Counted from the first letter of the whole stretch, positions 8,631 through 52,479 are shown. The stretch: 61,003 bases of DNA, filler included, from Sphacelaria rigidula (GCA_964200075.2; 7 parts of 7 records of this genome joined end to end with filler, not necessarily neighbours in it); one strand, 5' to 3'. The notes: generated from the letters alone by a model not told the origin. Program-made: numbers and translations.

Positions 8631-8730
8631 NNNNNNNNNNNNNNNNNNNNNNNNNNNNNNNNNNNNNNNNNNNNTTAATTAATTAANNNNNNNNNNNNNN
8701 NNNNNNNNNNNNNNNNNNNNNNNNNNNNNN
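8631..8730. other. Artificial 100-nt contig spacer (N44-TTAATTAATTAA-N44); the same spacer occurs at 17361-17460, 26090-26189, 34819-34918, 43548-43647 and 52276-52375
   Basis: Six identical N blocks with a six-frame stop linker. The segments between them are 8630/8630/8629/8629/8629/8628/8628 bp, i.e. contigs sorted by length. Confidence 0.98.
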
Positions 8731-17100: not shown

Positions 17101-20100
17101 CAATTTACATGAGGAGAGATGGTTTAGGCGGTCATCCATTAACAACCGCCGCGGTCGGACGAACAGTTTTTTCTTGTCGTTAGGTCGTGTCGTATTGAGA
17201 CAAAAAAAAAACGGTAAGAGGACCACGCGTCCGAAAGGAGCATGTTGAGTCGTCGCAACCGTGGGCCAGCCCGGCGATCAATCGATATGGTGCTTTTGGA
17301 CGTGTCCAACTTTCTGTTTTTTTTTTCTGGGCATCCCCGGGAAGGTTGTGCGTGGTGGTGNNNNNNNNNNNNNNNNNNNNNNNNNNNNNNNNNNNNNNNN
17401 NNNNTTAATTAATTAANNNNNNNNNNNNNNNNNNNNNNNNNNNNNNNNNNNNNNNNNNNNAAAAGATCTTAAAACGTACCCCAATTTACCATGGAAAAGG
17501 TACAGTGAAACGACACATCCGTGGTTTACAGTTTCACCTGAACCGTAACAAATAACATTTAAGTCGTGCCGCTTATACAGTACAGTATCTTGTAGCGGTG
17601 ATTCCAATCACACACAACGTACTCAGACTGCCCTGTCTGAATTTGCAACACAGTCCACTTCTGGGAGGTTGGGGCCGAAATTTTACGAGGATATGCTGCA
17701 TGCAAGGTGAACAACTGTGCTTGAAGCAGCACATTGTCCTCATCTGCTGAGGTGTCTAATCACTTTAACTTACTGTTTTATTTCTTTCGTTTTCTGCCGC
17801 GAATGTATTTCGCGTATTGATATTATAATATAGTCCCCTGTCAAAACTTCACCACCGAACTCCTAATAAATATCAAGCGGCGCGTCATCTGCCAACCGCG
17901 AACAGGAACCGTTGCCCGGCCTGGCTCGTAATGCTCACGAGAGGTTCAAGAATGGGTAACTATGGACTGAGAAAACTCCATCAGAAGCAGAAGTTGGATA
18001 TTTTCAATACCTTCTCGTCTCAGGGGAGGGAGAGGTCCGGAGCATGTTGGTTCGAATCGTCACCCTCCACCGGTATGTGTTTTTCGCCGTGTTTGGGCTC
18101 ATCTGTAGACCCTTCCGGATTCCTGGCTGATCAGCGTACACGGAGGGAGAGGTGTTTTGGTCGTCGATCGAGGAAGGTTGTACCGGTAAAAGAGAAAAGG
18201 GGAAGTGGTGCGCGATTAGTAGGAGAAAAATGGTGAGAATATGTTTTGACAGGCAAGACAATCCTCCCTCTCCTCTCTTCTTCTCCAGGAAAAATGACTA
18301 ACAACTAGATGGAGCTATTTCCGCCGTTTGGGTGTTCCAACTGTGCACTTCTACGCCTTTGACGACATGCGAGAGGTGCGCATTGGCGTCGATATCGGGG
18401 AGCGAGAAAAACGAAGGCATTTCACAGTGGCTGGCTCATCTACTACCCTTCGATACTTTGAACAAACACAGGATATACGGTAGTAGAAATCGTCTGCATC
18501 ATCCACATCCACGCACCGCCAGACAAGAAGGTGTACCGTAGAACACACAGCTAGTGAGCGCAACAAATACCCCAGGTGAAACAGGTTCCCTAAAAGCGGA
18601 TAGAACAGGACTGCCGGTTACAGTACCCTGCCAATGCTCGTGTCATTATCGCTCATACTTTGTGTACCCCACGGTACTTCCCCCCCCCCCTTCCGTCGTA
18701 TCGAAAGAGGTTCGTAATCGACGTTCAAATGATCAAGGCAAAAAAGCGAATGAGCATACCCCCATCCTCGTGCCCTCATTCCTCCTCCTCGTGCTTCAAG
18801 GAAAGGATTGCCGCGTCAGGGAAAGCGGAAGATCCGCAGGCGAATGTAGTATCTTTTGTGAGCGGAAATCGGTATAACATTACTCGGCAATATTTTTTGT
18901 AATCCAAGAATGTTGTTTTTTGCTAGTCATGAACAAGGGGGAGAGCAAGTCAGCGGCCAACTGGCAAGATGAAGCCCATTTCTGGGCTGAGGTTCGAGTC
19001 TTGGTATTTTCGTGTCCAGCCGTGAAGATCCACCACTGTCTCGTGCTTGGTGAATAGAGCTGGCGAGCTCAACCGCGCCACTGCCCTGACCTGACCGCCT
19101 TCGCTGTGCCTACAAGAGCAACTGTGCCAAACTTCGTATCTGCTGGCCGACCTTTGTTTGCCTGTTTCGCATGTGCGTGTTCCTTTTCTGTGTGACGCAA
19201 CTCGAGTCCCATTCGCTGGGTACACTGACATATCGTGCTGGCCACATCTGGTCGTGGGGGACGTTTGCCGAGGACCTCAAATTACATGTCGAACGGGGAT
19301 CTTTTTCTGGGACATCCATTTGGGATACACGTATTCATGTGAGACATCCACGTAGTATATGGAAGTCCATCTGAACGCTGGCCCTTATCCGGAATATGTA
19401 TGTATCTACTATAGTATCCATCTGTGGCGTTCATCTGCCACGTCTATCTGGTACATGAACGTCCGTCGGGAACGCCCATCCGGATCTGGGGTGCCTCGAC
19501 CGTATCGATCGGTGTGTCGAGGTTCGTGGGTTCGAGTACCGACAAATCTGATCACTTACATTTCGATCGAGCGTGATTTACACGTGAGTACGGGGCAAAG
19601 AAAAGTATCGCTGGAAGCCGGTAGGCTGCGGTAGCGCTGTTTGAACCCTCGATAACTATTTGTTGGGAAGGCGCCGACGGAGAGATCAGTTGATCCATTG
19701 CAACTAACAATATCGTCCCGAGAAAGAGAGAGGGGGGGGCGTAAAGGCATGACAAGAATACAAGCTCGATCGCAGCGGCCGTGACTGACGGTCTCAGATG
19801 GGCGCGCCGGGTTTCGGGCAAGGTAGTGTCAAAGCATGCGATTGAAGGCACCGCCCAATACTGTGTGTGTGAATATACGAGATAATGAACGAACGAGAAA
19901 ACTGGCCGGCAGATAACATCATTTCAACTACATGGAGCTAGCAGTCGACGCGGTGCGGGATTGCTGACGATTCAATCAGCGATACCAATATGTAAGTCGT
20001 GTATCGGGGGAGAGATGGGTCGATTGACTCCTTGAGATCACGGACTCGTCCCGAGGAAGGACGGGAGTTCAAAATGGGATCGGGGGGCGAGGGAGGGTGA

Positions 20101-25975: not shown

Positions 25976-28935
25976 CTGCCATCGAGAGGTTGAGGTTGCA
26001 GTTGCGTTTGCGCACGGCGGGAGGGGAGGGGGGTGTACTCATGATCATGCATGCCATAGTCACAGGACCATTGACCTTGCATCCCTACANNNNNNNNNNN
26101 NNNNNNNNNNNNNNNNNNNNNNNNNNNNNNNNNTTAATTAATTAANNNNNNNNNNNNNNNNNNNNNNNNNNNNNNNNNNNNNNNNNNNNACTGATTGACC
26201 GCTTTTCACTCTCAATCGTATCATCTACTCTCAATCTCACGAAAACACTGTTTATCATGGTATCTCGGAAAAACTGCCTTGTCCCGGTCGAATTTCGCCC
26301 ACCGGACAGAGGGCTAGACGGATTGTGAAAAGAGGTAATACTCACTTTATTCCTCTCCTTCATCACTTTTTTCCAGCATTCGTCGCTGTCACCGGCGAAA
26401 AAAGATTTCATCGTCGTAGGAAATACGTAGAGAGAGTACTTCACGATATATTTTCTTCTGGTCGGAACAGGATCCAGCCAGGTGCAAACACCCCTCAGCT
26501 TATTATATTCTGCTCATGCGATGTCGTCATTCTGCACGACAAGGCCAACCAGTGAAGATTCTTCGGTATACTGACAAGGAGGGAAATCTCACTGTTCACT
26601 CATGCATTCTCAACTTTCGGCGGAAATCCGGTAACAATCAAATCAAATTATGTTATACCGACGTCACGATGCAAACGTGGAATTTTCGATCAACCATCGC
26701 ACATGAAGTCGGGATACGCATAATAATTATTGGCGGTCTGCAACAAGACGGTCAAGCCGAAATGACCACAAAGCAGTATACTGTAGACATCCATTTGCCA
26801 AGTAAAGACAAACTAGAGCGCAAAAAGTTCAACCTCTGGCTTGTGCAGGTTTGCGGGTTAACTTCCGAATACCATCCCGTTGTGTGTATATATAGTATAT
26901 ATATACATGTGTGTATATATATACACACACAAACACACCTGAAGGGAGCTTGAACCATGGATTTTCCCTGTATCCATGCATTTCAGTACGTACAAACATG
27001 AACCAGGGATAAATATCTCGTGCGCGGGTGAATAGTCAAGGCTCCGCCATACAACAATTGCACGGGGGGGTTTGTTTCACACACATATGTTTGTTTTGCA
27101 GTATTATTCCAGGACACACCACCAGCCAAACACGGGTTACGGTGCGACAAATCAAGATGATAACCAACCAGCACAGCCAGCAGCGCCCATGTTCTCCCAC
27201 CAAACAAATCAAACATCAGTCACCCCTACCCTTCCTTTTTGCGTACGCGACCTCTCCGTCAGTTGGGGAAAGAAATAAAAACCCACAACCTGTCGGTAAC
27301 ATGCACCCAACTATGTGTTGCGCCGCCTGGATCATGACTCGAGTTCACCCTACAAACGTAACACTTTTGAGAAACAAATGCACCAAGAGGCACCAGCTGC
27401 ACCAACAACGGCATTCCGATTCAATGCTACTACTAAAAAATAACCTACTACGCGCAGTGGTGCTCCACTCAGCATCCCCTCGCTGCAACAACGCTCAAGG
27501 CTAAAAATCACGACACCCCAAGATCCGACACGTGGCCGTCACCATCAAGCACGGATCACATTAGATGCGATCTAACCAACCAGGCGGTTTCCTCTGACGA
27601 TAAAATCACCGATCAAAACATCCCCTCCAACAGAAAGGAGTATTAATAGCACTTGAATAAAAAACGCGGATAACTGAAAAAGCACCGGGGAAAACTCACG
27701 GTAGCCGCGACCGATGAAAACGGGTGGGATGAGAACAAAACCACCGAATAACCGTAACATGGCTCGCCAACAAACATCTCGATCCTTCCCAATCCCGCGC
27801 AACAATGGTACCCTCGCTTTCATCCACGAAGAACCCCTCCTCCCCTCACCCCCCCACTGACACCGTAAGATGTCCCGGCAAAAAACACCATGGTCCTGAC
27901 CAACCTCGCAAAAAAGCGACCTCCTCGCTTCATTTGCAAATAAGGAAAACTACGCCCCCTCTCACCCCTCTCGACCCCACCCCACCCCGCCGCACCCCCC
28001 TTCCCTCCCCCACGAATCAACGACCAACCGAAGAATACTTACACAACGTTGTACTACTAACTAATCCCCATCGCTTCCCATTGATTTCCCCCCTCTTGTG
28101 GTATTTACATCGCGCGCGCGTTATTTCGCGCATTGAAATCGAATATTTTTGTGACTTCCCCATCCAAGGCACTGCTTGCTTGTTTCTGCGCCTACGCCGT
28201 CATCCCATAGCGGGTCGTGCAATGCGGGGATCATGATAAATGGTGCATTTGACGATACTATATCGCGACAAGAGGTTTTTAAAAGTAACAATAAAGGAAA
28301 AACAGGATATCTGTACACTACGATAGGATATCTCCATATGACGTTCTGTGCCCAAGCCCACGAAACAAATATTATACGACGCACATGTATGTGTATATAT
28401 ATGTAAATATCTATAAATGAAAAAGAAAATCCGTTCCGAAATCTCATATGTTTTACCGACCCTCACAAACAAAATCAAAATCATCCCCAAGCCCGTCCAA
28501 AAACCGCTTTATTCGACCCGTACTTCTCGGGCTCAACAGGCTGCCGCCAACCGCGGTTACCGCCATAACGGAGGCGCCTCCTGGCTCATGTTGCAGTATC
28601 GCACGGTGACAACACTACTGTTCCCGCTTTTTATCCCCGACAAACCCGTGTAGATCCATGTGTATCTGCCCCTTGGCACCACCGTACCTCCTCGGACCGT
28701 ACCGTACCATACTGATATGTGAAGGCCACCTAAACCGTCTCTCAAATTGGCTCCACATCGGCCGGCACTACCAGAGTATCGACCAGCTTGGACCTGTACA
28801 GCACCGACACCGCAGCGTACAGCGACAGTATCGTCCAGCGCGAACCCCCGCAGTACACAAACCGTGCAGTGCATCACCATGCAGGACCGATGCCCATCAT
28901 GCCGGCATAGAACAATGACCGCAAATGAATTGATG

Positions 28936-29934: not shown

Positions 29935-30387
29935 CTGAGAAAAAAAAAAAACACAGCGGAAAACAATCAAACTTTTACCTTTTGCTAAAATATGTAGCTA
30001 ACGGTCTGACAAAAGATACATGGCAATGTGCATGCAATGTCTGGTCAGGATCCTATTCCCTCCCGAAAACAAGGGGCGTGAAAACATACTCCACTACACA
30101 AGAAATAGGGAGCAGAGATGCATGCGATGCAAAAAAAAATGCCCATGCAGAGTGTTTCATTGTGAGCACGTCCCACGCAGCGCGCTTGCAACAGGGCGAC
30201 ACCCTACCAACTCACCATGTCGACTACAGGCTTATCTATCTTACCCTTTTCCAGCTGCAGTACACCGCTTGAGAGTTCACACTTTGCGAACGCAGTCAAA
30301 GGAAACGATAAGCCAGCCATGCCGCTTGCGCACACACAACCACATAAAACAAACTTGCAAGGGGGATAAAACGGAGGCCGACCTCAC

Positions 30388-31326
30388 CTGCACCAACAGA
30401 CTACCGTCGGCAGTACCCACACACACGACAATAGGGGCATTCGGGTTAGGCCCCAATTCCACAGACTCCACCGCGGGCCAGTCCTGCTCGCCCCCAGCGC
30501 CCATGCCGACCGCAAATCCCCCCGCCCGTCCCCTCCCCCCGCCACCCCCTGCGCCGCCGGCGCCGCTAGCGCCACTACTTCCAGGGAAGCAGTCGATCGT
30601 TGCCCAACTGTGAGGGTCCAGGCTCCACACAGGAGCCAAATCGGCAGTGGTCCGAATCTCCAGCATCAATCTCTCACCACCGACAACAAGCAGTTCGCCG
30701 CGGCCGGCGGTGGAGAGGCATCGCACGGCACGAGTCATGCCCGCAACCCTTGCCGTGAGCCGCCCATTGACCGTGTATACCTCCAGTTCGTGCGTCACGG
30801 GCACCGTTACCGCCGCCGCATCCATACCCCCGTCGGTCTCGACGACCACAGGAGCGGTCGGTCGAGAACCCGCGAGAGCCGCATACCCGGCCTCCGCGAG
30901 CGCACACGCCGTATAGCGTGTAGCCGGGGCTTCGGGCGTTTCGAGATGATTCGAGCACCCGCCGCGGCCGCCGTTGGGGTCACCGACTGCAGACCTAAGC
31001 GTCCGCAGCAACACATTTCCCTCGGTCGAGGTCAGCAGAGCGCGTCCATCGGAACATGTCAGGGCAAGCCCGAGGCCATCGCTCACGGCGCACGCGGTCA
31101 CGGGGCCACGGTGACCGCGGACCACGAGGGACGGACATCGGCGGGCGGCGGGGCGGCGGGCGGTCGCTGTCAAGAAGCTGGCCGTAAGGCGCCGAAGGGA
31201 CCACAGCAGCGCCGTGCCGTCGCTAGCGCCCGAGAGCACGAGATCGCGGTCGGTTGCTTCGAGCCCGCACGAAGCGAGGCAGGTTATCGGGGCGGAGTGG
31301 CCGTGGAGCGCCATCTCGCCGCATAC
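30388..31326 (-). CDS. WD40-repeat exon (GH...VLSGASDGTALLWS; RGHRGPVTACAVS)
   Basis: GCAG|GTA acceptor, CAG|GTGAGG donor, 313 codons, clear GH-WD repeats. Joins the upstream exon as WQFDSSNGQ|VCGEMALHGH. Confidence 0.9.
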
Positions 31327-34667: not shown

Positions 34668-35373
34668 CTAGTAATTCATGGGGGGAAATGGACATTTTAG
34701 GGGGGGAAATCGAGGGTGGCAGGTATGGGTTTGGGAGAGGGGACGGAGGGGGCGGGGACGGGGACGGGGGGGGGGGGGGGGGTCGTAGGCAGCAGGAAAA
34801 CAAAGGATAAGAAGGGGGNNNNNNNNNNNNNNNNNNNNNNNNNNNNNNNNNNNNNNNNNNNNTTAATTAATTAANNNNNNNNNNNNNNNNNNNNNNNNNN
34901 NNNNNNNNNNNNNNNNNNCTCGTTGGCCAACACGAGGATGAGCGTCGTTTTTTTTTTTTCGAGGACCGTGCTTTGCTGTGCGGTGCATGCACGCCGCATA
35001 TTGTGTACGGTTAGATCCAGCATTGTCTGAAGACTACGGCATTCTCAACCCTGGCGGTAAAGCAGGAGATTGGTGCCGTATGTCCCGCATCACATTTGCC
35101 CAGCCCCCCCCCCGGCTGATGGCAGTGCAACATCGGGCTTGTGTGCGACGACTTGATAGCATTCTCAGAGCAATTGTTAGTAGATGAGAGCCATTACGGA
35201 GAACACCGCGCTGTGTGTTGTCCTGGATTCTGCGAAGACGACCCTCAGTTGCTCACCGTCAACGATTCCTCCCACACCATATCGCTCGAGAAACACGGAG
35301 GCAAGCAATGGCCTCTGGTCATCAGTTGTGGGTTCATCATCACTCATCATCTCCTCTTTGCCGCCGCATGAAC

Positions 35374-36404: not shown

Positions 36405-38942
36405 ATGGATGGAAAAATGAAAGCTACCATGTGAGAAGTAACCTTGTGTTCCTGTCTCGTCGTCCCATACGTTCACACTGTAACGCTTTGTACAGTGGGA
36501 GTCCAACTACACTGCAATCAAAGTTATTGATCACAACGGAATTGCTACTGAAATACAAGTGGCTGTAAAACACCAGGAGAGGGCAGGCCCCCCGCATGAT
36601 GCGGTCCTTCCGGGTCTGCGACCCACTGTACTCTGCTGGGACCCCCACAGGATATATATTTCGCGCTCGGGATAGCTTTCATCCTTCGTAAGGGTGACCC
36701 TCATAGTGGCATTGTTTATATGGTTGATGGTTCTGGAGTGGAGTGACCATTACGGACAATAAGATTACCCTTCATGTCAGAGTGATCTCCTCTTTACCTT
36801 TCGCGATGTTTAATACGAAGCACTCTCAGGCGCTTGCCGTTACGCAAAAGCAGTATAAAACCGTTCTCACACCCCGTTCAGCTAACCCACACCGGGCGAA
36901 AATGTACGGGGTCGCGGACGCTCATCAGGGCGGTGTACAGGACGCTATCGGGTCACTTGTGAGGTGTCCAGGCGCGGTATTCGTCACTTTGCACCGAACA
37001 TTTCCGTTGTCCTTGAGTTCATGGCCAGCATAGTAAACACGCGCCCACCTCACATATTGTACGCTGTCAAGCACCATGTATGCGGTGGCTTGTGTGTAAG
37101 CTCACCACTGCAGCTTTCAAACACCAGCGATAGCCACGAGAAATCGCAGCACAGCACAGCAGCTCTTCCGTACCATTCCGATGATGAATATCGGGTGGCT
37201 TCGTCTATTCAACCTTTTGTGAGACCCATCTTATTTATGGTCAAACGTTATGTCGTGTCAGTACAAACGAATGAAAAACATGAAGTTACGGTAGGCCAAT
37301 ACTTTCTTTCCACGCCGCCGTTGTAGCTGATGACGCCTCGTGGGATATCTCGAAATCGTTTTCGACAGTGCATCTCGGAGTCGCTGTTTCCACCTAGGGT
37401 GGTGTTGTGGTTGCACAGCGTTTGCCGACGATGTTTGGGACAGCCCTGCTGTTTTGCGCAACGAAGGAGGCCCAGCAGGAAGATGAAAACAACCCCCCGT
37501 CCCTCACCATGCACCTGCAGATGGCTTCGCACGCCGGCGTACATCTGGTGAATGTTATTCCGCCGATACCAATGCATGGCCCTTGTCCCTATCGTGCGTC
37601 TGGGCGTTGTCGTTGCATATGGTGCCGTGTGGACCGAGTGTGCATCGAAATGAGCACAGCAGATGTGGTTGTCGTATTACTCTTGATTCGAACCCATCGG
37701 CTAGTTTCTGTTTTATTTGTGGCCTCGGTCACGGTGGCATGTCGTTCAATATTCCGGAGGTAACCGCAATTTGTCAACGAACGGGCGCAGCCTTGTACAA
37801 CTGGAATGTCGCTGGAACGTGCACAGAGGCCGTAGATTGACGCTAGTAGCACAAAATCGTTCGGGTGGGTTTCCCCTCAGCGGTTTCAAGCCTCATCACA
37901 ACTATTTGGCACGTCCTTACTGGTGTGACCGCATGTCGATACCATTCGAATTTTGTTCTTCACCGTCATTGTGTTCCTTGGTGTTTCCAACAAAGTTGTA
38001 CAACTGCGTCCATGTGGAGGGCTCACATGGTCACTGCAATGACACCTGTGGTGCATGAAGAACATGGCCGCTCCGGCTTGTCCCGTCCACTAATTCAGCA
38101 TCGCCATGACCCTCCTTCCATGCCATGATACCACTCGTGCGTTATTGCTGGCGCTGTTGAACATGAAAACTGCCTCCCCACACCATGCGCGCCCGTTCAA
38201 CTGTGTACCCCAGTATACATGGGTGGCCACTGGGGTGCCTACAACCTCAAATTTGGACATTACAGACCTTGTGCAACGTTCGTAACGTCCAAATTCGAGG
38301 TCGCAGGCACCCCAGTGGCCACCCGTGTATTGTTCATGTGATGCTGCACAGCTATCGCTGATATATATAGTCAGGCTTTCATTGTGCAAATATTTCTCGC
38401 TGGCTCGTCCTGTGTAACCTGAAACCCTGAGTTGGTTACTTCGACATAGATCCATGCGTCAGGTCCCTTTCATGGATGACTGGAGATTCTTTAGACATTG
38501 GCGTTGTGCTTTGCATGTTTCCCGCGACGTGATCATTCTGTTATCGTACCACATGAATACTTGATGCGCTCCCGTTCCCTGCTGCAAGAGTGTGGGGGAC
38601 GTCCCACTCGGTGGAACCATCTTGCGACTTGGTATCAGCTTACATGAAGCGTCATAAAAATTATATGCAGGCAGGTTCGTTTTTTCCAGAGTATGTGGAA
38701 CAATAACACGGCCATACGTTCTTCAAAGATTTTCAAATCGGCTCCACCCATGGCTCACGAGGTATGTTTTGTTGTCTTGTTATCTGTGCTACCGTAAGCA
38801 GTACGGCTTTGGATGAGCGCGACCGAAGAAGGTGACGGCCAGCGTCGCGGGCGAATAGCGCATCATCGAGCGCTGCTCCAAGCCATCTTAAAGCTCACAG
38901 GGGTACGAGGCGGGGTTCTACCTCGAGTACGGCAGGGCCGCA

Positions 38943-41348
38943 ATGTTGGATTTAAAGAAGGGACGGCTGTGCAGTGACGGGAGCTGCTCGGACAGGCCAT
39001 CGTATGGTGTAGCAGGAAGCACGAAGGCGGAGTTCTGTTGGAAGCATGTCAGGGCGGGAATGGTGAATGTGAAACGCAAGACGTGCAGCTACGAGAGTTG
39101 CTCCTCGCATCCGTCGTATGGTGTGGCGGGAGGCAAAAAAGCGGATTTTTGTTCCAAGCATGCCAAGACGGGAATGGTGAATGTAAGGAATAAGAAGTGC
39201 GGCTACGAGGGTTGTTCCTCGCGTCCGTCGTATGGTGTGGCGGGAGGCAAAAAAGCGGAGTTCTGTTCGAAGCATGCCAGGACGGGAATGGTGAATGTAA
39301 GGAGAAAGACGTGCGGCTACGAGGGCTGTTCCTCGGAACCGTCGTATGGTGTGGCGGGAGGCAAAAAAGCGGAGTTCTGTTCGAAGCATGCCAGGACGGG
39401 AATGGTAAATGTATGGAGAAAGAAGTGTGGCTACGAGGGCTGTTCCTCGCAGCCGTCGCATGGTGTGGCGGGAGGCAAAAAGGCGGAGTTCTGTTCGAAG
39501 CATGCCAGGACGGGAATGGTGGATGTAAGGGACAACAAGTGCGGCTACGAGGGCTGTTCCTCGCAGCCGTCGTATGGTGTGGCGAGGAGCACGAAGGCAG
39601 AGTTCTGTTCGAGGCATGCCAAGACAGGAATGGTGAATGTGAAGTACAAGACATGCGGCCACGAGGGCTGTTCCTCGCAGCCGTTGTATGGTGTGGCGGG
39701 AAGTAAAATAGCGGAGTTCTGTTCGAAGCATGCCAGGACAGGAATGGTGAATGTGAAGCACAAGACGTGCGGCTACGAGGGCTGTCGCTCGCATCCGTCG
39801 TATGGTGTGGCGGGAGGCAAAAAAGCGGAGTTATGTTCGAAGCATGCCAGGACGGGAATGGTGGACGTAAGGAACAAAAAGTGCGGCTATGAGGGCTGCT
39901 CCATGCATCCGTCGTATGGTGTGGCGGGGAGCACCAAGGCAGAGTTCTGTTCGAAGCATGCCAAGACGGGAATGGTGAATGTAAAGCACAAGACGTGCGG
40001 CTACGAGGGCTGTTCCTCGCAGCCGTCGTATGGTGTGGCGGGAGGCAAAAAAGCGGAGTTCTGTTCGAAGCATGCCATGGCGGGAATGGTGAATTTGAGG
40101 AAAAAGGACTGCGCCTATGAGGGCTGTTCCTCGCAGCCGTCGTATGGTGTGGCGGGAGGCAAAAAAGCGGAGTTCTGTTCGAAGCATGCCAAGACGGGAA
40201 TGGTGAATGTGAGGAACAAGAAGTGCGGCTACGAGGGCTGTTGTTCGCATCCGTCGTATGGTGTGGCGGGAGGCAAAAAAGCGGAGTTCTGTTCGAAGCA
40301 TGCCAGGACGGGAATGGTGGATGTAAGGAACATCAAGTGCGGCTACGAGGGCTGTTCCTCGCAGCCGTCGTATGGGGTAGCGGAAAGTGCAAGGGCGGAG
40401 TTTTGTTCGAAGAATGCCAGGACGGGAATCGTGGATGTAGAGGAAAAGACGTGCCCCTACGAGGGCTGCCTTACATCTTCGTCCTCTGAGGTAGCGGGAA
40501 GAACTCAAGCGAAGTTATGTTCCAAGCACGCTAGCGCGGGAATGGTGAATGTGAACAAATGCGGTGACGAGGGCTGCCCCGAATGTCCTTCGTATGGTGT
40601 GGCGGGAAGCAGAAGGACGGAGTTCTGTTCGAAGCACGCCAGGGCGGGAAGGATGAGTCGGGTGCCCACGAGATACAAGGAAGAGGGGTGCTCCAAATCA
40701 GCTCTCGATAGTGAGAACAATGGTAATGAAAATATCTTTCTCCGGCAGCATGTTGGTGCGCACAGTACAGCCGAGGTATTCGACTCTACGAAACTCAGCA
40801 CTCGGGAGGGCTCTCGCGACCGTAGCCCGACGGAAGGTGGTAAAGCAAGTGTTGCTAATGCACGAGGAGGGAAGCGCAAACGCGCAGCACTGTCGGGTTC
40901 TGTTGTAAACGACGATGTTAGTGCTCCCCGTAGTGTGTGCGTCGGTCCTAGGCAGGGTGTAAGAACGCCCTCGCTTTCAGGAAACTCACCTTTGCTCTTT
41001 GGATACCCACCTTCGAGGCCTTATGGTGAGGAATCGTTGAGAGCAAGAGAAGGAGCAGGATTGAAAGTGGAGCTGGCAGTCCCTTCTCCTGCACACGATA
41101 GCGACGGGGTGAGACAGGTTCGCGAGCAGGCTGCCCGTTCGGTTGGTCGGAGCAGCGAACCCGGTCGTGGTGGCTTCAATAGCAGTGGTGGTGGAAGTAC
41201 GGGACATCTCTGTGGTTCGTTGCAAGTGGTACCTGGATACCTGGAGGCATGTGATGATGTGGTTTTGGGCGGGGCAGAAAAGGATTCGAACGTGAAGTTG
41301 GAACTCGACGTATCTAGTCCTTCTCCCCGAACGTCTGATACATGGTAA
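38943..41348 (+). CDS. EsV-1-7 cysteine-rich repeat protein, 801 aa: 15 tandem C-x4-C-x16-C-x2-H repeats plus a low-complexity C-terminal tail
   Basis: Uninterrupted ORF with consensus CGYEGCSSxPSYGVAGGKKAEFCSKHARTGMVNVxxKx, which fits the EsV-1-7 domain of brown algae and phaeoviruses. A possible 5' acceptor lies at 38900. Confidence 0.93.
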   Translation: MLDLKKGRLCSDGSCSDRPSYGVAGSTKAEFCWKHVRAGMVNVKRKTCSYESCSSHPSYGVAGGKKADFCSKHAKTGMVNVRNKKCGYEGCSSRPSYGVAGGKKAEFCSKHARTGMVNVRRKTCGYEGCSSEPSYGVAGGKKAEFCSKHARTGMVNVWRKKCGYEGCSSQPSHGVAGGKKAEFCSKHARTGMVDVRDNKCGYEGCSSQPSYGVARSTKAEFCSRHAKTGMVNVKYKTCGHEGCSSQPLYGVAGSKIAEFCSKHARTGMVNVKHKTCGYEGCRSHPSYGVAGGKKAELCSKHARTGMVDVRNKKCGYEGCSMHPSYGVAGSTKAEFCSKHAKTGMVNVKHKTCGYEGCSSQPSYGVAGGKKAEFCSKHAMAGMVNLRKKDCAYEGCSSQPSYGVAGGKKAEFCSKHAKTGMVNVRNKKCGYEGCCSHPSYGVAGGKKAEFCSKHARTGMVDVRNIKCGYEGCSSQPSYGVAESARAEFCSKNARTGIVDVEEKTCPYEGCLTSSSSEVAGRTQAKLCSKHASAGMVNVNKCGDEGCPECPSYGVAGSRRTEFCSKHARAGRMSRVPTRYKEEGCSKSALDSENNGNENIFLRQHVGAHSTAEVFDSTKLSTREGSRDRSPTEGGKASVANARGGKRKRAALSGSVVNDDVSAPRSVCVGPRQGVRTPSLSGNSPLLFGYPPSRPYGEESLRAREGAGLKVELAVPSPAHDSDGVRQVREQAARSVGRSSEPGRGGFNSSGGGSTGHLCGSLQVVPGYLEACDDVVLGGAEKDSNVKLELDVSSPSPRTSDTW
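38970..40673 (+). repeat. Coding minisatellite, 114-bp unit x 15 (unit 14 is 108 bp)
   Basis: The first Cys codon recurs every 114 bp from 38970 to 40452, then at 40560. Confidence 0.97.
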
Positions 41349-41522
41349 ATGGAACCATTTTTCCCACCGATGCCGTTGCTCAAATTAAGGATGTATCAGT
41401 GCGGACTCGCGTATGTTGACGACGCAAACGACGCTTGATCGGCACGGAGTTTTCTCTTCTATGGATGCGAAACAGTTCGAGGGGTTCATGGGGTCCTGGT
41501 AGTATGGCTTCCGCCAGAATGA

Positions 41523-41962
41523 AACACGGGATCTTACAAATTGGGGGTGGATCTTTAATTAGGGATGAGAAACCCGGAGAATTGGAATCTTCGTATCCAC
41601 ACCAAATCTTCGAGGTATGGTTCCATTTCTTCACCTGCTGATAGATATTGACGACTACCACACGCTGTAGACATTGGGATTTCGATCACCGAGTATTTGG
41701 GGTCCGAGGTGAAAAACCAATTCTGGGGAATTCCGGGTGTCCGAACGGACGCCAGAATGGTTCCGAAATCGGTTTTTCACCTGGGACCTCAACATTTCGA
41801 TGATCGAAATCCAAATTTCTATGGCGTGTAGCAGTTGTCAATAGCTATCAGTAGGTGAAGAAATGGAACCATATTTCGAAGATTTGGTGTGAGCACGAAG
41901 ATTTTGATCCTCCGGGTTCCTCATCCCCAATAAAACATCCCCGATTTGTAAGATCCCGTGTT
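41523..41962. repeat. ~440-bp imperfect palindrome (foldback MITE-like)
   Basis: AACACGGGATCTTACAAAT (41523) pairs with ATTTGTAAGATCCCGTGTT (41962). Pairing continues to the centre GTCCG-AA-CGGAC at 41739-41750. Confidence 0.93.
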
Positions 41963-43647
41963 ATGAGAGTCTAGCATTCAGTCAAGAGGGAGAACCCAAA
42001 AAATAGAAATTTCTAATCAACACATCGAATGGTGGATTATTCCGGATTACGCCCTGCGCCGAGCCAGGCAAGAAGCACCTGAACTGTATTCTAACTCCCT
42101 TAGCGCCATCAGCCAGCAGAAATGTGAATCCAGATTTCGAGGAATGGTCGATTTGTATCTGAAACAGTTTCAGTTGTGAAATGCTCGTCCAGGCTATATA
42201 CGCTCTGTGTACCAGCTTGCCACTGGAGCCTCTGATGTCCCCCAGAAAGGATCTCATTGTGGAGCTTGAAGCACACGACATCGTTACCAGCAAACCGCAC
42301 ACACGAAAAATAGGCCAAGTCAGAGCGAATCATAAACTCTACTTGCAATTAACGCGAAACTCTCCATATTTCGAAACCCTGTTACGTCTCAGTACCAGAT
42401 TCCACCAGCGACCGAGGCGCCGTTGACTTAATTGCGTCAACCGTGCCCTTCAGTTTCAAGTTGCCAAGGGCTGATCGAACGTGACGTCTTGGTAGCAGTC
42501 GGCGACCCGACGAACCGCGACCCCACTCTGACTTGCGATTCGTATTTGTCCCCAACCTTGCTTGACTGATGGTGCAATGCCTACAGTAACTTTGTTCATG
42601 TTGTAACACAGCATTTGTACCCCCGAACAACAGCGCGTGCGGCGCATTTCATATCTCATCAAAGTCCACGCAGGAGAGTTGTTTTTTGCCACAGTATAGT
42701 CTTAGTGCTATAGTTGTAGAAACATATTCTGTCTATGGGATCTTGAAAGACATCATGATTCCACCTCGCACCTGAGGTCCAACTGGTGCTGTACACCTCA
42801 AGAATCGCTTAGGGCAGAGGTGGGGTTTTGCATCTATCTCACTTTGTAGATGGCTGGAGCAGACAAAACAAGGGTGAGCGATTGTTTGTTGATCATCTCG
42901 AAGCTGTGGCACAGTGCGGTGATGCGCTGACCCTCGATAACGACACATTCACAACCCGGACAGGACCAAGTGTCCATATCACCTGCAATCTCGGGAGATG
43001 GTTCACGTCGGGGTTGAAGGGTGGCAAACGATTAGCCGGGTCTGATGGTGGTTCTCATTCTTGCGTAGTCGGGCAGTCGAGTCAGCCTCTCCCTTTTTTG
43101 CGGGATTCATCGTGACGACTCGGGCCCAATTCATTGGCATTTTCTCAATTCTCTAATACTTCCTCTGTCCCAAAAGTAAAGGTCCTAATGGGGGGCAGAT
43201 CATATCTCGCCAATGGAGTTCCCTACGATGTTCAAGTTAGCTTTGCTGACAAGCTATTGATACGGTGATGTTCATAATTAAAATGACTCGGACTCACCGA
43301 GACTTATTGGGTCGAAACGTGGGAAATTTGCGGGTTTTGGGAACTTCTACAGTAGGGCGCTCTAGCCCCCATCGCGGAGCGTTACGGTGTCGGCGTTGGC
43401 TACCGAAGAAAGAGTTTGTCCCAGTGCAAAGCTCAGAACAACGAAACCGAGTTACTGGAGACGATCTTCCAGTAGTACAGAACAACGAATTGTGCGAATT
43501 GAGGTTTAACTTCGAGATGAGGCTCAAGCCTAAAACAGTGCTTTCCCNNNNNNNNNNNNNNNNNNNNNNNNNNNNNNNNNNNNNNNNNNNNTTAATTAAT
43601 TAANNNNNNNNNNNNNNNNNNNNNNNNNNNNNNNNNNNNNNNNNNNN

Positions 43648-45373: not shown

Positions 45374-45510
45374 TTAAGAGGGATCGTGGCGGGGGGGGGG
45401 GGGGGGGGGGGGTCTGTTTATGTTTGTGTTTGTTTGGTTGTGGTTGGTGGTGCCTGGGCTTTGTTTTTTTTTTTTTTTTTNNNNNNNNNNGTGGGGTGAG
45501 GGGGGTGGGT

Positions 45511-52275: not shown

Positions 52276-52479
52276 NNNNNNNNNNNNNNNNNNNNNNNNN
52301 NNNNNNNNNNNNNNNNNNNTTAATTAATTAANNNNNNNNNNNNNNNNNNNNNNNNNNNNNNNNNNNNNNNNNNNNTGTTTTGTGCTTCTGTGATCGTACG
52401 CACCCAAGCAGTCGTAAACTCGAGCAAGCAGCACCTGATGGGCAATCGTATCGGTTCATGAAAACCAGCATGCCTCGAA

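Follow-up and report, generated by a model that had tools for sequence, protein, structure and literature searches.

Constrained scaffold and two fast positions in a fifteen-unit EsV-1-7 array of the brown alga Sphacelaria rigidula

EsV-1-7 genes are described, in the portions of the literature available to us, as the largest orthogroup across brown-alga genomes, with 2018 EsV-1-7 proteins counted in 31 genomes. The family includes a developmental regulator. We analysed a 61,003-nucleotide stretch of Sphacelaria rigidula DNA (the window, by which we mean the whole of this stretch, filler included) that carries a long array of such repeats, and asked what the array might do, and in particular whether it could be a modular reader of DNA or RNA whose specificity resides, like that of TALE or PRDM9, in a few residues on a constant scaffold, as a first-pass annotation had proposed. 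That annotation also held that EsV-1-7 domains have no established molecular function, in agreement with the available parts of the published accounts.

A fifteen-unit array in a probably expressed brown-alga gene

The locus consists of a single open reading frame on the plus strand (38943-41348), the longest in the window, encoding 801 amino acids followed by a TAA stop in what is apparently one coding exon; the exact 801-aa sequence is present in the ESM Atlas. Pfam assigns 15 stretches of the protein to PF19114 (EsV_1_7_cys; 690.4 bits against a gathering score of 25 bits, E 1.8e-213), only 9 residues precede the first unit, and no other Pfam domain was credited anywhere in the 801 residues. 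A Phe_ZIP entry (E 4.6e-13, 0 stretches) was rejected as the sum of weak matches across the repeats.

A six-frame scan for the pattern C-x4-C-x16-C-x2-H returned 14 exact units, and the fifteenth is unit 13 (aa 466; 40338-40451, plus strand), in which asparagine replaces the final histidine, H26 (CSKN at 40404-40415), confirming the fifteen tandem units annotated earlier. Thirteen units of 38 aa (114 bp) each follow one another in exact register on the plus strand between 38970 and 40451, with starts at 38970+114*i, and unit comparison identified two degenerate terminal units behind them (40452-40673, plus strand), namely unit 14 (36 aa, from 40452) and unit 15, the last (from 40560). Tandem Repeats Finder independently reported a period of 114 bp at 38996-40650, with 14.6 copies, 84% matches and a score of 2101. 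Units 14 and 15 are common, nearly unit for unit, to the closest paralogue, P0002, whose number of units differs from that of the present array. DNA identity between units ranges from 69 to 95%, with the maximum reached by a non-adjacent pair (units 8 and 12); a lag test detected no higher-order repeat, mean identity being 86-89.5% at lags 1-8. The nearly identical DNA stretches that had been pointed out before are indeed present, each codon of CCG TCG TAT GGT GTG GCG occurring in 11-12 of the 13 in-register units and each codon of GAG TTC TGT TCG AAG CAT GCC in 10-13 of them. The array is strongly basic (96 K+R against 44 D+E, pI 9.39), with a net charge of +2 to +6 in 12/13 in-register units.

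The remaining 224 residues form a C-terminal tail (40674-41345, plus strand; pI 7.08), which had no match in Pfam or NCBIfam and could be aligned with the tails of six other Sphacelaria rigidula proteins. This alignment revealed three short motifs, all on the plus strand. The first is a basic cluster, G-K-R-K-R-A (40869-40886), with KRKRA present in 6/7 aligned tails, counting P0009, in which R replaces the first K (RKRA); it resembles a nuclear localisation signal and may act as one. The second, L-K-V-E-L (41061-41075), contains a K-V-E that is invariant in 7/7 tails and presumably corresponds to the hydrophobic-K-x-E SUMO-acceptor pattern. The third, V-K-L-E-L (41292-41306), is a similar motif near the C-terminus, where [VLM]-K-[LI]-x occurs in 6/6 tails that reach that far, with E as its last residue in four tails, D in P0004 and K in P0003, the tail of P0002 stopping before it. 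Such a tail would supply the protein with short motifs for import and regulation.

Contig coverage suggests that the gene is transcribed, although the kinds of sequencing runs X1-X8 are guesses. Contigs from three runs tentatively typed as RNA (X5, X6 and X1) cover 38800-41753 and give zero coverage on the flanks (36420-38123 and 42384-42951), whereas run X2, which looks like DNA, covers 30/30 bins; on the basis of this gene-limited cover the gene is probably expressed. In the same three runs, 383-nt contigs match the window from position 38800 onwards while their remaining 170 nt map elsewhere, and X2 is continuous across 38419-39012. Together with a likely acceptor read from the sequence (cag at 38799-38801 behind a pyrimidine-rich stretch at 38765-38793), this gives a hint, conditional on the guessed RNA nature of these runs, of a splice junction and of probable 5' untranslated sequence in the main exon (38802-38942, plus strand), with an in-frame stop located between 38802 and the ATG. 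Downstream, X5 contigs at 40590-41613 and 41586-41753 delimit a probable 3' untranslated region (41349-41753, plus strand), whose true end is uncertain, since its distal portion runs into a palindromic repeat of high copy number. High-copy repeats lie on the flanks of the gene. Within the array the contigs are short and jump from unit to unit.

The closest relatives among the matches listed are unnamed proteins of Sphacelaria rigidula, Ectocarpus, Scytosiphon and Pylaiella, and no viral hallmark was found in the six other window ORFs of at least 200 aa that were scanned, whose sole family match was WD40. These ORFs, together with 801 codons that remain open, a scaffold whose rate of change is only about 0.3 times the synonymous one (see below), a tail common to six paralogues, the gene-limited cover in three runs and the likely splice junction, make it very improbable that the locus is a decaying or selfish duplicate, such as a functionless inserted-virus remnant or pseudogene, even though the family is considered viral in origin (in the accessible part of the source), unit 13 no longer has its histidine, both terminal units are degenerate and high-copy repeats flank the gene. 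We favour instead a host gene of a Sphacelaria-like brown alga belonging to an expanded EsV-1-7 family, as one part of the overall reading developed below.

Taken alone, the array gene is an ordinary further member of this known and functionally uncharacterised family. It has the same tandem C-x4-C-x16-C-x2-H spacing plus 12 residues as other PF19114 members, including Ectocarpus IMMEDIATE UPRIGHT (IMM), and, like the Ectocarpus members in the available portion of their description, it has no other Pfam domain. As far as the accessible description of IMM goes, that protein has five repeats instead of 15, the units here are more alike, and IMM is set apart by its own N-terminal domain, where the present protein has only its few pre-array residues. 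The combination of KRKR and K-V-E in the tail is, within the family, confined to a Sphacelaria subgroup.

Positions that change between units

With units that are still young, the homogenised array offers a natural experiment in which positions that are held can be told from positions that are free or pushed. Amino-acid change was earlier said to be concentrated in three places, and the three residue lists given for them are identical, letter for letter, to the columns read here: position 9, the residue before P-S-Y-G (codons 38994+114*i, i=0..12, spanning 38994-40364 on the plus strand; RHREQQQHHQQHQ), loop positions 17 (SGGGGSSGSGGGS) and 18 (TKKKKTKKTKKKA), and the neighbouring positions 35 (KRRWRKKRKRRRE) and 36 (RNRRDYHNHKNNE), the latter lying in the inter-unit linker [KR]-x-K-[KT] (codons 39075+114*i, spanning 39075-40445 on the plus strand). 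Across the whole unit, pN/pS was 0.128/0.260, and with positions 9, 17, 18, 35 and 36 set aside the ratio to the global synonymous rate was about 0.30. The scaffold is thus under purifying selection.

On the unit tree, codon 36 accounts for 12 of about 66 non-synonymous changes with 0 synonymous ones, and codon 9 for 7 non-synonymous and 2 synonymous changes. Under a null model of evenly spread change, one codon with at least 12 changes has P 2e-5 and a second with at least 7 has P 0.0018, such that change clusters at 36 and 9 against a constant background, as had been proposed. For the loop and position 35 the proposal did not stand: all four units with K35 (1, 6, 7 and 9) also have S17 and T38, three of the four also have T18, and the tree counts amount to 3 non-synonymous changes at 17 and 18 together and 3 at 35. 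Positions 17, 18, 28, 35 and 38 are therefore not hypervariable, as they mostly reflect two linked unit subtypes, and the truly multi-allelic positions are 9 and 36 only.

Whether this clustering reflects diversifying selection bears directly on the idea that each unit reads one or a few bases through position 9, positions 35/36 and the loop, with units reshuffled in minisatellite fashion as in PRDM9/KRAB arrays. Relative to global dS, dN reaches 3.3 at position 36, against 1.6 at 9, 1.3 at 35 and 1.9 for the three taken together (nominal P 0.003-0.027). The expected excess of dN over dS at the named positions is nominally seen, among single positions, at 36 alone (single-site P 0.0015-0.007), a result not predicted by pure relaxation. 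Correcting for the selection of the most variable codon weakens it to P 0.18 across 38 codons, or to P 0.06 across the 13 codons at which at least three residues occur, and positions 9 (P 0.06-0.19) and 35 (P about 0.55) are not singly above neutral. These algal codon tests concern one array, the others being viral.

Similar positions stand out in other arrays. Mean within-array entropy across 37 other arrays is highest at 36 (1.83) and 9 (1.78), position 36 is nearly always polar or charged (L, V, I, M or F in 23/374 pooled family units), and in two independent viral arrays with homogenised units position 9 ranks at or near the top for variability. In one homogenised viral array (L019), by contrast, S and N are the only residues in the linker column, and no position is clearly above the synonymous rate, the maximum being 1.22 times that rate at position 28. 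In most viral arrays each unit has a single orthologous counterpart, about 60% identical to it, whereas the algal array is homogenised, and comparison of giant-virus orthologues placed 9, 35 and 36 among the least constrained positions, none exceeding 1: the highest per-position pN/pS values were at 35 (1.0), 9 (0.6) and 4 (0.56) in one orthologue group (A) and at 4, 36 and 9 (0.4-0.5) in the other (B). Hairpin positions 8, 13, 16, 17 and 20 are unit-specific and yet kept between viral orthologues, and are reported constant in the present algal array. Among the viral arrays, one (L013) was assessed by eye only, and the one viral and four metagenome loci from the related-locus search (alignment A2; L001-L005) contributed unit lists only.

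The picture of a constant scaffold with hypervariable positions would come from 9 and 36, as the positions under least constraint and with the fastest divergence. Their clustered changes, the mostly polar or charged residues at 36, and the difference in unit number between paralogues and the similarity of non-adjacent units, both of which fit array reshuffling, favour a reading code. The corrected P values, the linked subtypes at the loop and at 35/38, the S/N linker of L019, the drift of 9/35/36 between viral orthologues, at a pace that does not exceed the synonymous rate, and hairpin residues that in viruses differ between units and persist between orthologues while being constant here weigh against it, and we consider such a code improbable. 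More plausibly, position 9, just behind the first cysteine knuckle, and linker position 36 would be the least constrained surface positions of the unit.

Predicted structure and likeness to known modular arrays

AlphaFold2 predicts six units with a pLDDT of 78.8 and a strand/turn pattern that repeats in every unit, comprising a short hairpin (12-14, 20-22), a helical turn from C23 to H26, and a third strand (31-33). With a pTM of 0.36, the units are not predicted to pack against one another in a fixed way; the units are confident and no rigid superhelix appears, a further point against a reading code. With the six-unit model as query for the fold searches, Foldseek gave no match at E up to 0.001, with B-box and PHD modules in its low-ranking, weak tail, and the best VIA-align matches were weak ones to the IDOL RING (Z 2.3-2.4) and the zinc-binding domain of coronavirus nsp13 (Z 2.0-2.3). 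By sequence, solved structures yielded 0 matches with the protein as query (E up to 1) and 0 with a six-unit profile (E up to 10), and the algal units had no usable named match outside PF19114 in the ESM Atlas.

Among known arrays, a likeness exists to the C2H2 fingers of PRDM9 and KRAB proteins, which are beads on a string in the absence of ligand and evolve like minisatellites with few fast positions. The present array likewise consists of small tandem zinc modules, presumed in our case, whose coding DNA units are nearly identical and in which few positions of an otherwise constant scaffold change fast. Its ligands, their spacing and the secondary structure predicted for it are different, with no Pfam match to zf-C2H2 at E up to 0.1. 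The linker is a conserved part of C2H2 arrays, whereas here it holds the fastest position, and the corrected P of 0.06-0.18 at position 36 falls short of establishing positive selection at DNA-contact positions (dN/dS above 1) as expected of the PRDM9/KRAB type. TALE repeats are 33-35 aa long, helical and metal-free, and pack into a superhelix; they resemble the 38-aa unit in length and in having two adjacent variable residues, and differ from its cysteine-rich build of short strands and one helical turn, for which the low pTM predicts no fixed packing.

An alternative is that the array binds RNA and not DNA. RNA-binding CCCH fingers have the spacing C-x8-C-x5-C-x3-H, and the CCCH ligand set and basic charge here recall tandem fingers of that kind; the spacing C-x4-C-x16-C-x2-H differs from theirs, and the partner domains found in relatives (below) act on DNA, so that we regard RNA binding as a remote prospect.

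Nuclease and transposase fusions in relatives

An indirect pointer to nucleic acids comes from relatives of the array. Giant-virus proteins (loci L006-L020), detectable homologues with the same repeat, carry 7-15 units followed by a zinc-ribbon and a C-terminal nuclease fold, unlike the present protein, which has no nuclease; nuclease-bearing homologues among the matches listed are 29-47% identical to it. An HMM of this C-terminal domain matched 62/121 proteins (the present protein and the 120 homologues listed), with no match in the present protein (P0001) or in named brown-alga homologues, and conversely PF19114 occurs in 79/84 proteins aligned on the viral domain. The domain is modelled with high confidence (pLDDT 89.5, pTM 0.82), and its best structural match in VIA-align is the 'EDxHD' Vsr-like homing endonuclease I-Bth0305I (3r3p_B; Z 9.0, 94 aligned, rmsd 3.0), followed by DNA-bound Vsr (1cw0_A; Z 8.4, 136 aligned), with 3hrl_A third (Z 8.0) and mostly restriction-type nucleases further down. 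Other searches of the viral tail gave a best Foldseek E of 5.8e-3 (McrC), no credible family in Pfam, PHROGs or NCBIfam, 0 matches of its profile to solved structures by sequence at E up to 10, and only leads in the ESM Atlas (score 0.86; DUF559, Vsr, PvuRts1I-like). No printed link between EsV-1-7 and nucleases was found among the papers listed for the EsV-1-7 term. In Ectocarpus, the available part of one account describes a Tc1/mariner transposase with an EsV-1-7 repeat domain at its N-terminus.

These fusions to a Vsr-like nuclease fold and to a transposase lend indirect support to a role of the repeat in nucleic-acid handling. They also bear on the alternative of a protein-binding or scaffold module that does not read nucleic acid and whose fast positions are simply exposed and unconstrained. 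Such a module would agree with the structural look-alikes, all of them weak (IDOL RING, nsp13 zinc-binding domain, B-box, PHD) and all zinc modules with protein partners or with several roles, with brown-alga proteins that have no enzymatic DNA domain, and with Ectocarpus EsV-1-7 genes lacking any other Pfam domain in the accessible portion of a 2026 preprint. The nuclease fusion in about half of the proteins and the N-terminal position in the transposase are, however, the places usually taken by DNA-binding modules, and the array is strongly net positive, which leaves a protein-binding role rather unlikely, if a serious contender.

We therefore propose that the gene encodes a nuclear array of zinc modules that most likely binds DNA and evolves like a minisatellite, a reading to which we assign about an even chance of being right as a whole. 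Each 38-aa unit would be a small zinc-binding module with C1, C6, C23 and H26 as presumed ligands, in line with a proposal in the available literature that the four EsV-1-7 ligands bind zinc, and the basic linkers would string fifteen such beads into a highly basic array that would bind DNA in the nucleus. The array would evolve as its units are duplicated and converted, while purifying selection holds the scaffold. Of the nucleic-acid reader suggested at the outset, general nucleic-acid handling thus gains from the relatives' fusions and the basic charge, and the TALE- or PRDM9-like code stays unproven. A bolder extension, in which the arrays form a further class of modular DNA readers that arose as the aiming part of giant-virus Vsr-type nucleases and were co-opted by brown algae as a large set of nuclear regulators, with positions 9 and 36 tuning what a unit reads in young, homogenised arrays such as this one, selection driving them apart and recombination shuffling the units, strikes us as a long shot.

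The pattern within the array and the fusions nevertheless turn the repeat into a testable proposal, a DNA-binding zinc module, with two candidate sets of specificity positions: 9 and 36, which are fast everywhere, and 8, 13, 16, 17 and 20, which differ between units and persist between viral orthologues. The fusions themselves belong to relatives of the present protein. A similar layout is known from I-Bth0305I (PDB 3r3p), which matches the domain of the viral relatives and not the present gene: in the available portion of its description (PMC3239194) it is bipartite, with an N-terminal DNA-binding region followed by a C-terminal Vsr-like nuclease, as in the viral array nucleases, and it contacts DNA through NUMOD motifs where the viral relatives carry EsV-1-7 units.

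The array-bearing gene and its probable transcription

The longest open reading frame of the window (38943..41348, plus strand, 801 codons) carries the array. Tandem Repeats Finder resolved a 114-bp unit in 14.6 copies (84% matches, score 2101), the same 114-nt spacing was seen in a second repeat search, and the Pfam family PF19114 (EsV_1_7_cys) matched 15 stretches of the 801-residue protein (E 1.8e-213). The C-x4-C-x16-C-x2-H motif is complete in fourteen units and carries asparagine for histidine in unit 13; units 1-13 keep an exact 38-residue register starting at 38970, and units 14 and 15 are degenerate; a motif scan found no EsV-1-7 motif in the window outside the array. Re-reading the units, we found the residue lists for the variable positions and the near-constant DNA stretches in the first-pass annotation to be correct. 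Among the matches listed, the nearest proteins are unnamed Sphacelaria rigidula products (best identity 66%), followed by proteins of Ectocarpus, Scytosiphon and Pylaiella and by many from metagenomes, and the identical 801-residue sequence is present in the ESM Atlas. The gene is a further member of the known EsV-1-7 family, whose expansion and lack of assigned function are already in print.

The edge units 13-15 (40338-40673, the 3' end of the array) are far more diverged than the inner units. Unit 13, besides losing its histidine, has a net charge of -2 versus +2 to +6 in other units, and units 14-15 are common, nearly unit for unit, to the paralogue P0002; it seems that only the inner units have been homogenised. 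Long ORFs of 169-280 residues also overlie the array in other frames or on the opposite strand (38952-39794, 39049-39654 and 39831-40508, minus; 39197-39706, plus), expected by-products because the repeat unit happens to be without stops in those frames.

Contigs of public sequencing runs were compared with the gene region in 30 bins, the RNA nature of X5, X6 and X1 being the tool's guess. Run X2 covered all 30 bins at even depth, and the smaller runs covered 18 (X5), 16 (X6) and 16 (X1), corresponding to the gene itself (38800 to about 41750) and to high-copy repeats, with no cover over the unique flanks 36420-38123 and 42384-42951. A 383-nt contig of these smaller runs fits the window from 38800 only, adjoining a cag acceptor and pyrimidine tract. 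The pattern resembles that of a spliced transcript whose start would be the ATG at 38943, given the guessed RNA identity of the runs, and the gene is probably expressed.

Eleven differences from the window occur in X6 and X1, none in X5 or X2. Eight sites lie inside the coding sequence (39096, 39759, 39805, 40053, 40061, 40067, 40665 and 40803; 6 non-synonymous, 2 synonymous) and three outside it (38887, 38892 and 41484); one turns the H of position 36 in unit 7 into Y. Within the array these contigs measure just 126-150 nt, so that cross-mapping from paralogues is possible.

Variation among units and across arrays

Counting positions from the first cysteine, column entropy is highest at 36 (2.57 bits), followed by 9 (1.74) and 35 (1.57). 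A maximum-likelihood tree built from the 13 in-register units implies some 66 non-synonymous and some 40 synonymous changes, with 12 and 0, respectively, at codon 36 and 7 and 2 at codon 9 (P = 2e-5 and 0.0018 for their non-synonymous loads under an even spread). Pairwise Nei-Gojobori estimates for the whole unit were pS 0.260 and pN 0.128, and dN over global dS reached 3.3 at position 36, 1.6 at 9, 1.3 at 35 and 1.9 for the three together, with 0.30 for all positions except 9, 17, 18, 35 and 36.

Neutral codon evolution simulated on the same tree, scaled to the observed pS, gave P values of 0.0015-0.007 for position 36, 0.06-0.19 for 9, about 0.55 for 35 and 0.003-0.027 for the three jointly. 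Because these positions had been picked for varying, the fair comparison is the maximum over codons, for which P was 0.18 (all 38 codons) or 0.06 (the 13 codons with at least three residues). From these values, the unit scaffold is clearly constrained, 9 and 36 change at the neutral rate or faster, and the non-synonymous excess at 36 is suggestive, not established. The dN>dS that the first-pass annotation would take as support appears in the ratios and is not established once the choice of the most variable codon is allowed for. Its claim that amino-acid change concentrates in three places held for 9 and 36, and gave way for the loop at 17/18 and for 35: S17 and T38 occur in every one of the four K35 units, and positions 17, 18, 28, 35 and 38 mostly mark two linked subtypes rather than independent hot spots. 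This is a real EsV-1-7-family gene under constraint, with a minisatellite-like array and two fast positions; that it is instead a gene in decay is extremely improbable.

Across 37 other arrays, each with at least five period-38 units and drawn from the 120 homologues listed, mean within-array entropy was again highest at 36 (1.83) and then 9 (1.78), which rank among the top three variable positions in 13/37 and 14/37 arrays, respectively; many other non-scaffold positions are nearly as variable. L019, a homogenised array from a giant virus (12 units of 37 residues, pN/pS 0.22), varies most at 28, 9, 4, 11, 14 and 15, none clearly exceeding the synonymous rate, and uses just S or N as its linker residue. 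In seven distinct viral orthologues (L006, L007, L009; L011, L012, L020, L015) ten units correspond one-to-one at about 60% identity, with an array-average pN/pS of 0.19; the highest values of pN over global pS in viral group A are those of 35 (1.0), 9 (0.6) and 4 (0.56), and in group B those of 4, 36 and 9 (0.4-0.5). Positions 9, 2, 15, 25, 24, 7, 35, 4 and 36 vary both among units and between these orthologues, and hairpin positions 8, 13, 16, 17 and 20 differ among units and are kept between orthologues.

On the simplest reading of these alignments, 9 and the linker would be the least constrained positions of the family, and the hairpin, which in the Sphacelaria array is constant or in two forms, may be the better candidate for a unit-specific recognition surface, if one exists. 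That positions 9/35/36 carry a genuine PRDM9- or TALE-like code, the reading that would make the fast positions specificity determinants, is unlikely. New here are a picture of selection resolved by position and two competing sets of positions that are candidates for specificity. Separately, in the giant-virus array-nuclease loci L006-L012, L015, L018 and L020 every unit has a conserved identity of its own at the hairpin positions.

Predicted fold and nuclease-bearing relatives

An AlphaFold2 model of six units, built with 50 aligned sequences (mean pLDDT 78.8, pTM 0.36), builds each unit from three strands (positions 12-14, 20-22 and 31-33) with a helical turn at 24-26. Confident units without fixed packing fit independent beads on a string rather than a TALE-like superhelix. 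Foldseek returned nothing among solved structures at E up to 0.001, a Protein Data Bank sequence search gave no match for the protein or its units, and VIA-align found no clear match, its best scores (Z 2.3-2.4) being to a RING domain and the nsp13 zinc-binding domain. An array serving as a protein-binding scaffold is a lesser possibility.

A degenerate F-C-x2-H-A-x2-G-M-V pattern run against viral contigs returned 15 loci. At least three units in one frame occur in 14 of the 20 viral or metagenome loci collected in all, and 11 of these 14 arrays lead into a conserved tail of 182-254 residues, for which Pfam, PHROGs, NCBIfam and PDB sequences gave no match. A profile search with this tail across 1.84 billion entries yielded 6036 cluster representatives at E <=0.001 (971 at E <=1e-30), the weakest of which may be arrays only since the first part of the profile holds EsV-like units; PF19114 is present in 79/84 aligned family members. 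The L019 tail was modelled confidently by AlphaFold2 (pLDDT 89.5, pTM 0.82) and matched the catalytic domain of I-Bth0305I (3r3p_B, Z 9.0, 94/98 aligned), Vsr endonuclease on DNA (1cw0_A, Z 8.4, 136/155) and the endonuclease-like protein 3hrl_A (Z 8.0, 91/94), with lower-ranked matches mostly to restriction-type nucleases.

In relatives, the array precedes a DNA-cutting fold. I-Bth0305I is described (PMC3239194) as a bipartite homing endonuclease with an N-terminal DNA-binding region followed by a Vsr-like nuclease; the viral relatives resemble it in the fold of the nuclease domain, whereas the Sphacelaria protein is without that domain. A tail-domain HMM matched 62 of 121 proteins (the Sphacelaria protein and its 120 homologues listed), and neither the Sphacelaria protein nor the named brown-alga homologues among them. 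Each unit would bind zinc, and the basic array (K+R 96, D+E 44, pI 9.39) may bind DNA; we favour a DNA-binding zinc array, at about even odds, and consider RNA binding by the array very unlikely. In the EsV-1-7 literature, the original 2017 paper and supplements aside, we found no published link between the repeat and a nuclease; a 2025 paper describes an N-terminal EsV-1-7 domain acquired by an Ectocarpus Tc1/mariner transposase.

The C-terminal tail and genomic surroundings

The C-terminal tail is common to six Sphacelaria paralogues. Its K-V-E is invariant in 7/7 aligned tails, a KRKR cluster is kept in 5/7 (RRKR in a sixth), and close to the C-terminus comes another motif resembling hydrophobic-K-x-E. 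On consensus patterns, these may be a nuclear signal and SUMO-type sites, and the tail would carry the protein to the nucleus.

Six other window ORFs of at least 200 residues were scanned and held no viral hallmark, the only match being WD40 repeats (E 2.1e-10) in a 345-residue ORF at 30277-31314 (minus), a probable exon of an adjacent host gene. Two near-perfect palindromes flank the array-bearing gene, at 38215-38330 (57-nt arms, 86% complementarity) and 41549-41940 (195-nt arms, 79%), each with 2 nt between arms; the latter overlaps the likely 3' UTR. Both are probably high-copy repeats of a foldback or MITE-like kind; X2 contig depth in their bins runs from thousands to hundreds of thousands.

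Homologues P0042, P0096 and P0015 give 26-36 bits with the land-plant Pfam domain Zf_WRKY19 (PF24906), in partial matches (profile positions 1-13 of 24) overlapping the first cysteine knuckle of EsV-1-7 units; some relationship between these short motifs is possible. Six pairs of 44-N runs with 12 bases between partners (8631-8730, 17361-17460, 26090-26189, 34819-34918, 43548-43647 and 52276-52375) recur every 8729-8730 bases, alongside a single 10-N run at 45481-45490; such strict periodicity looks like a masking or assembly/processing artefact rather than biology.
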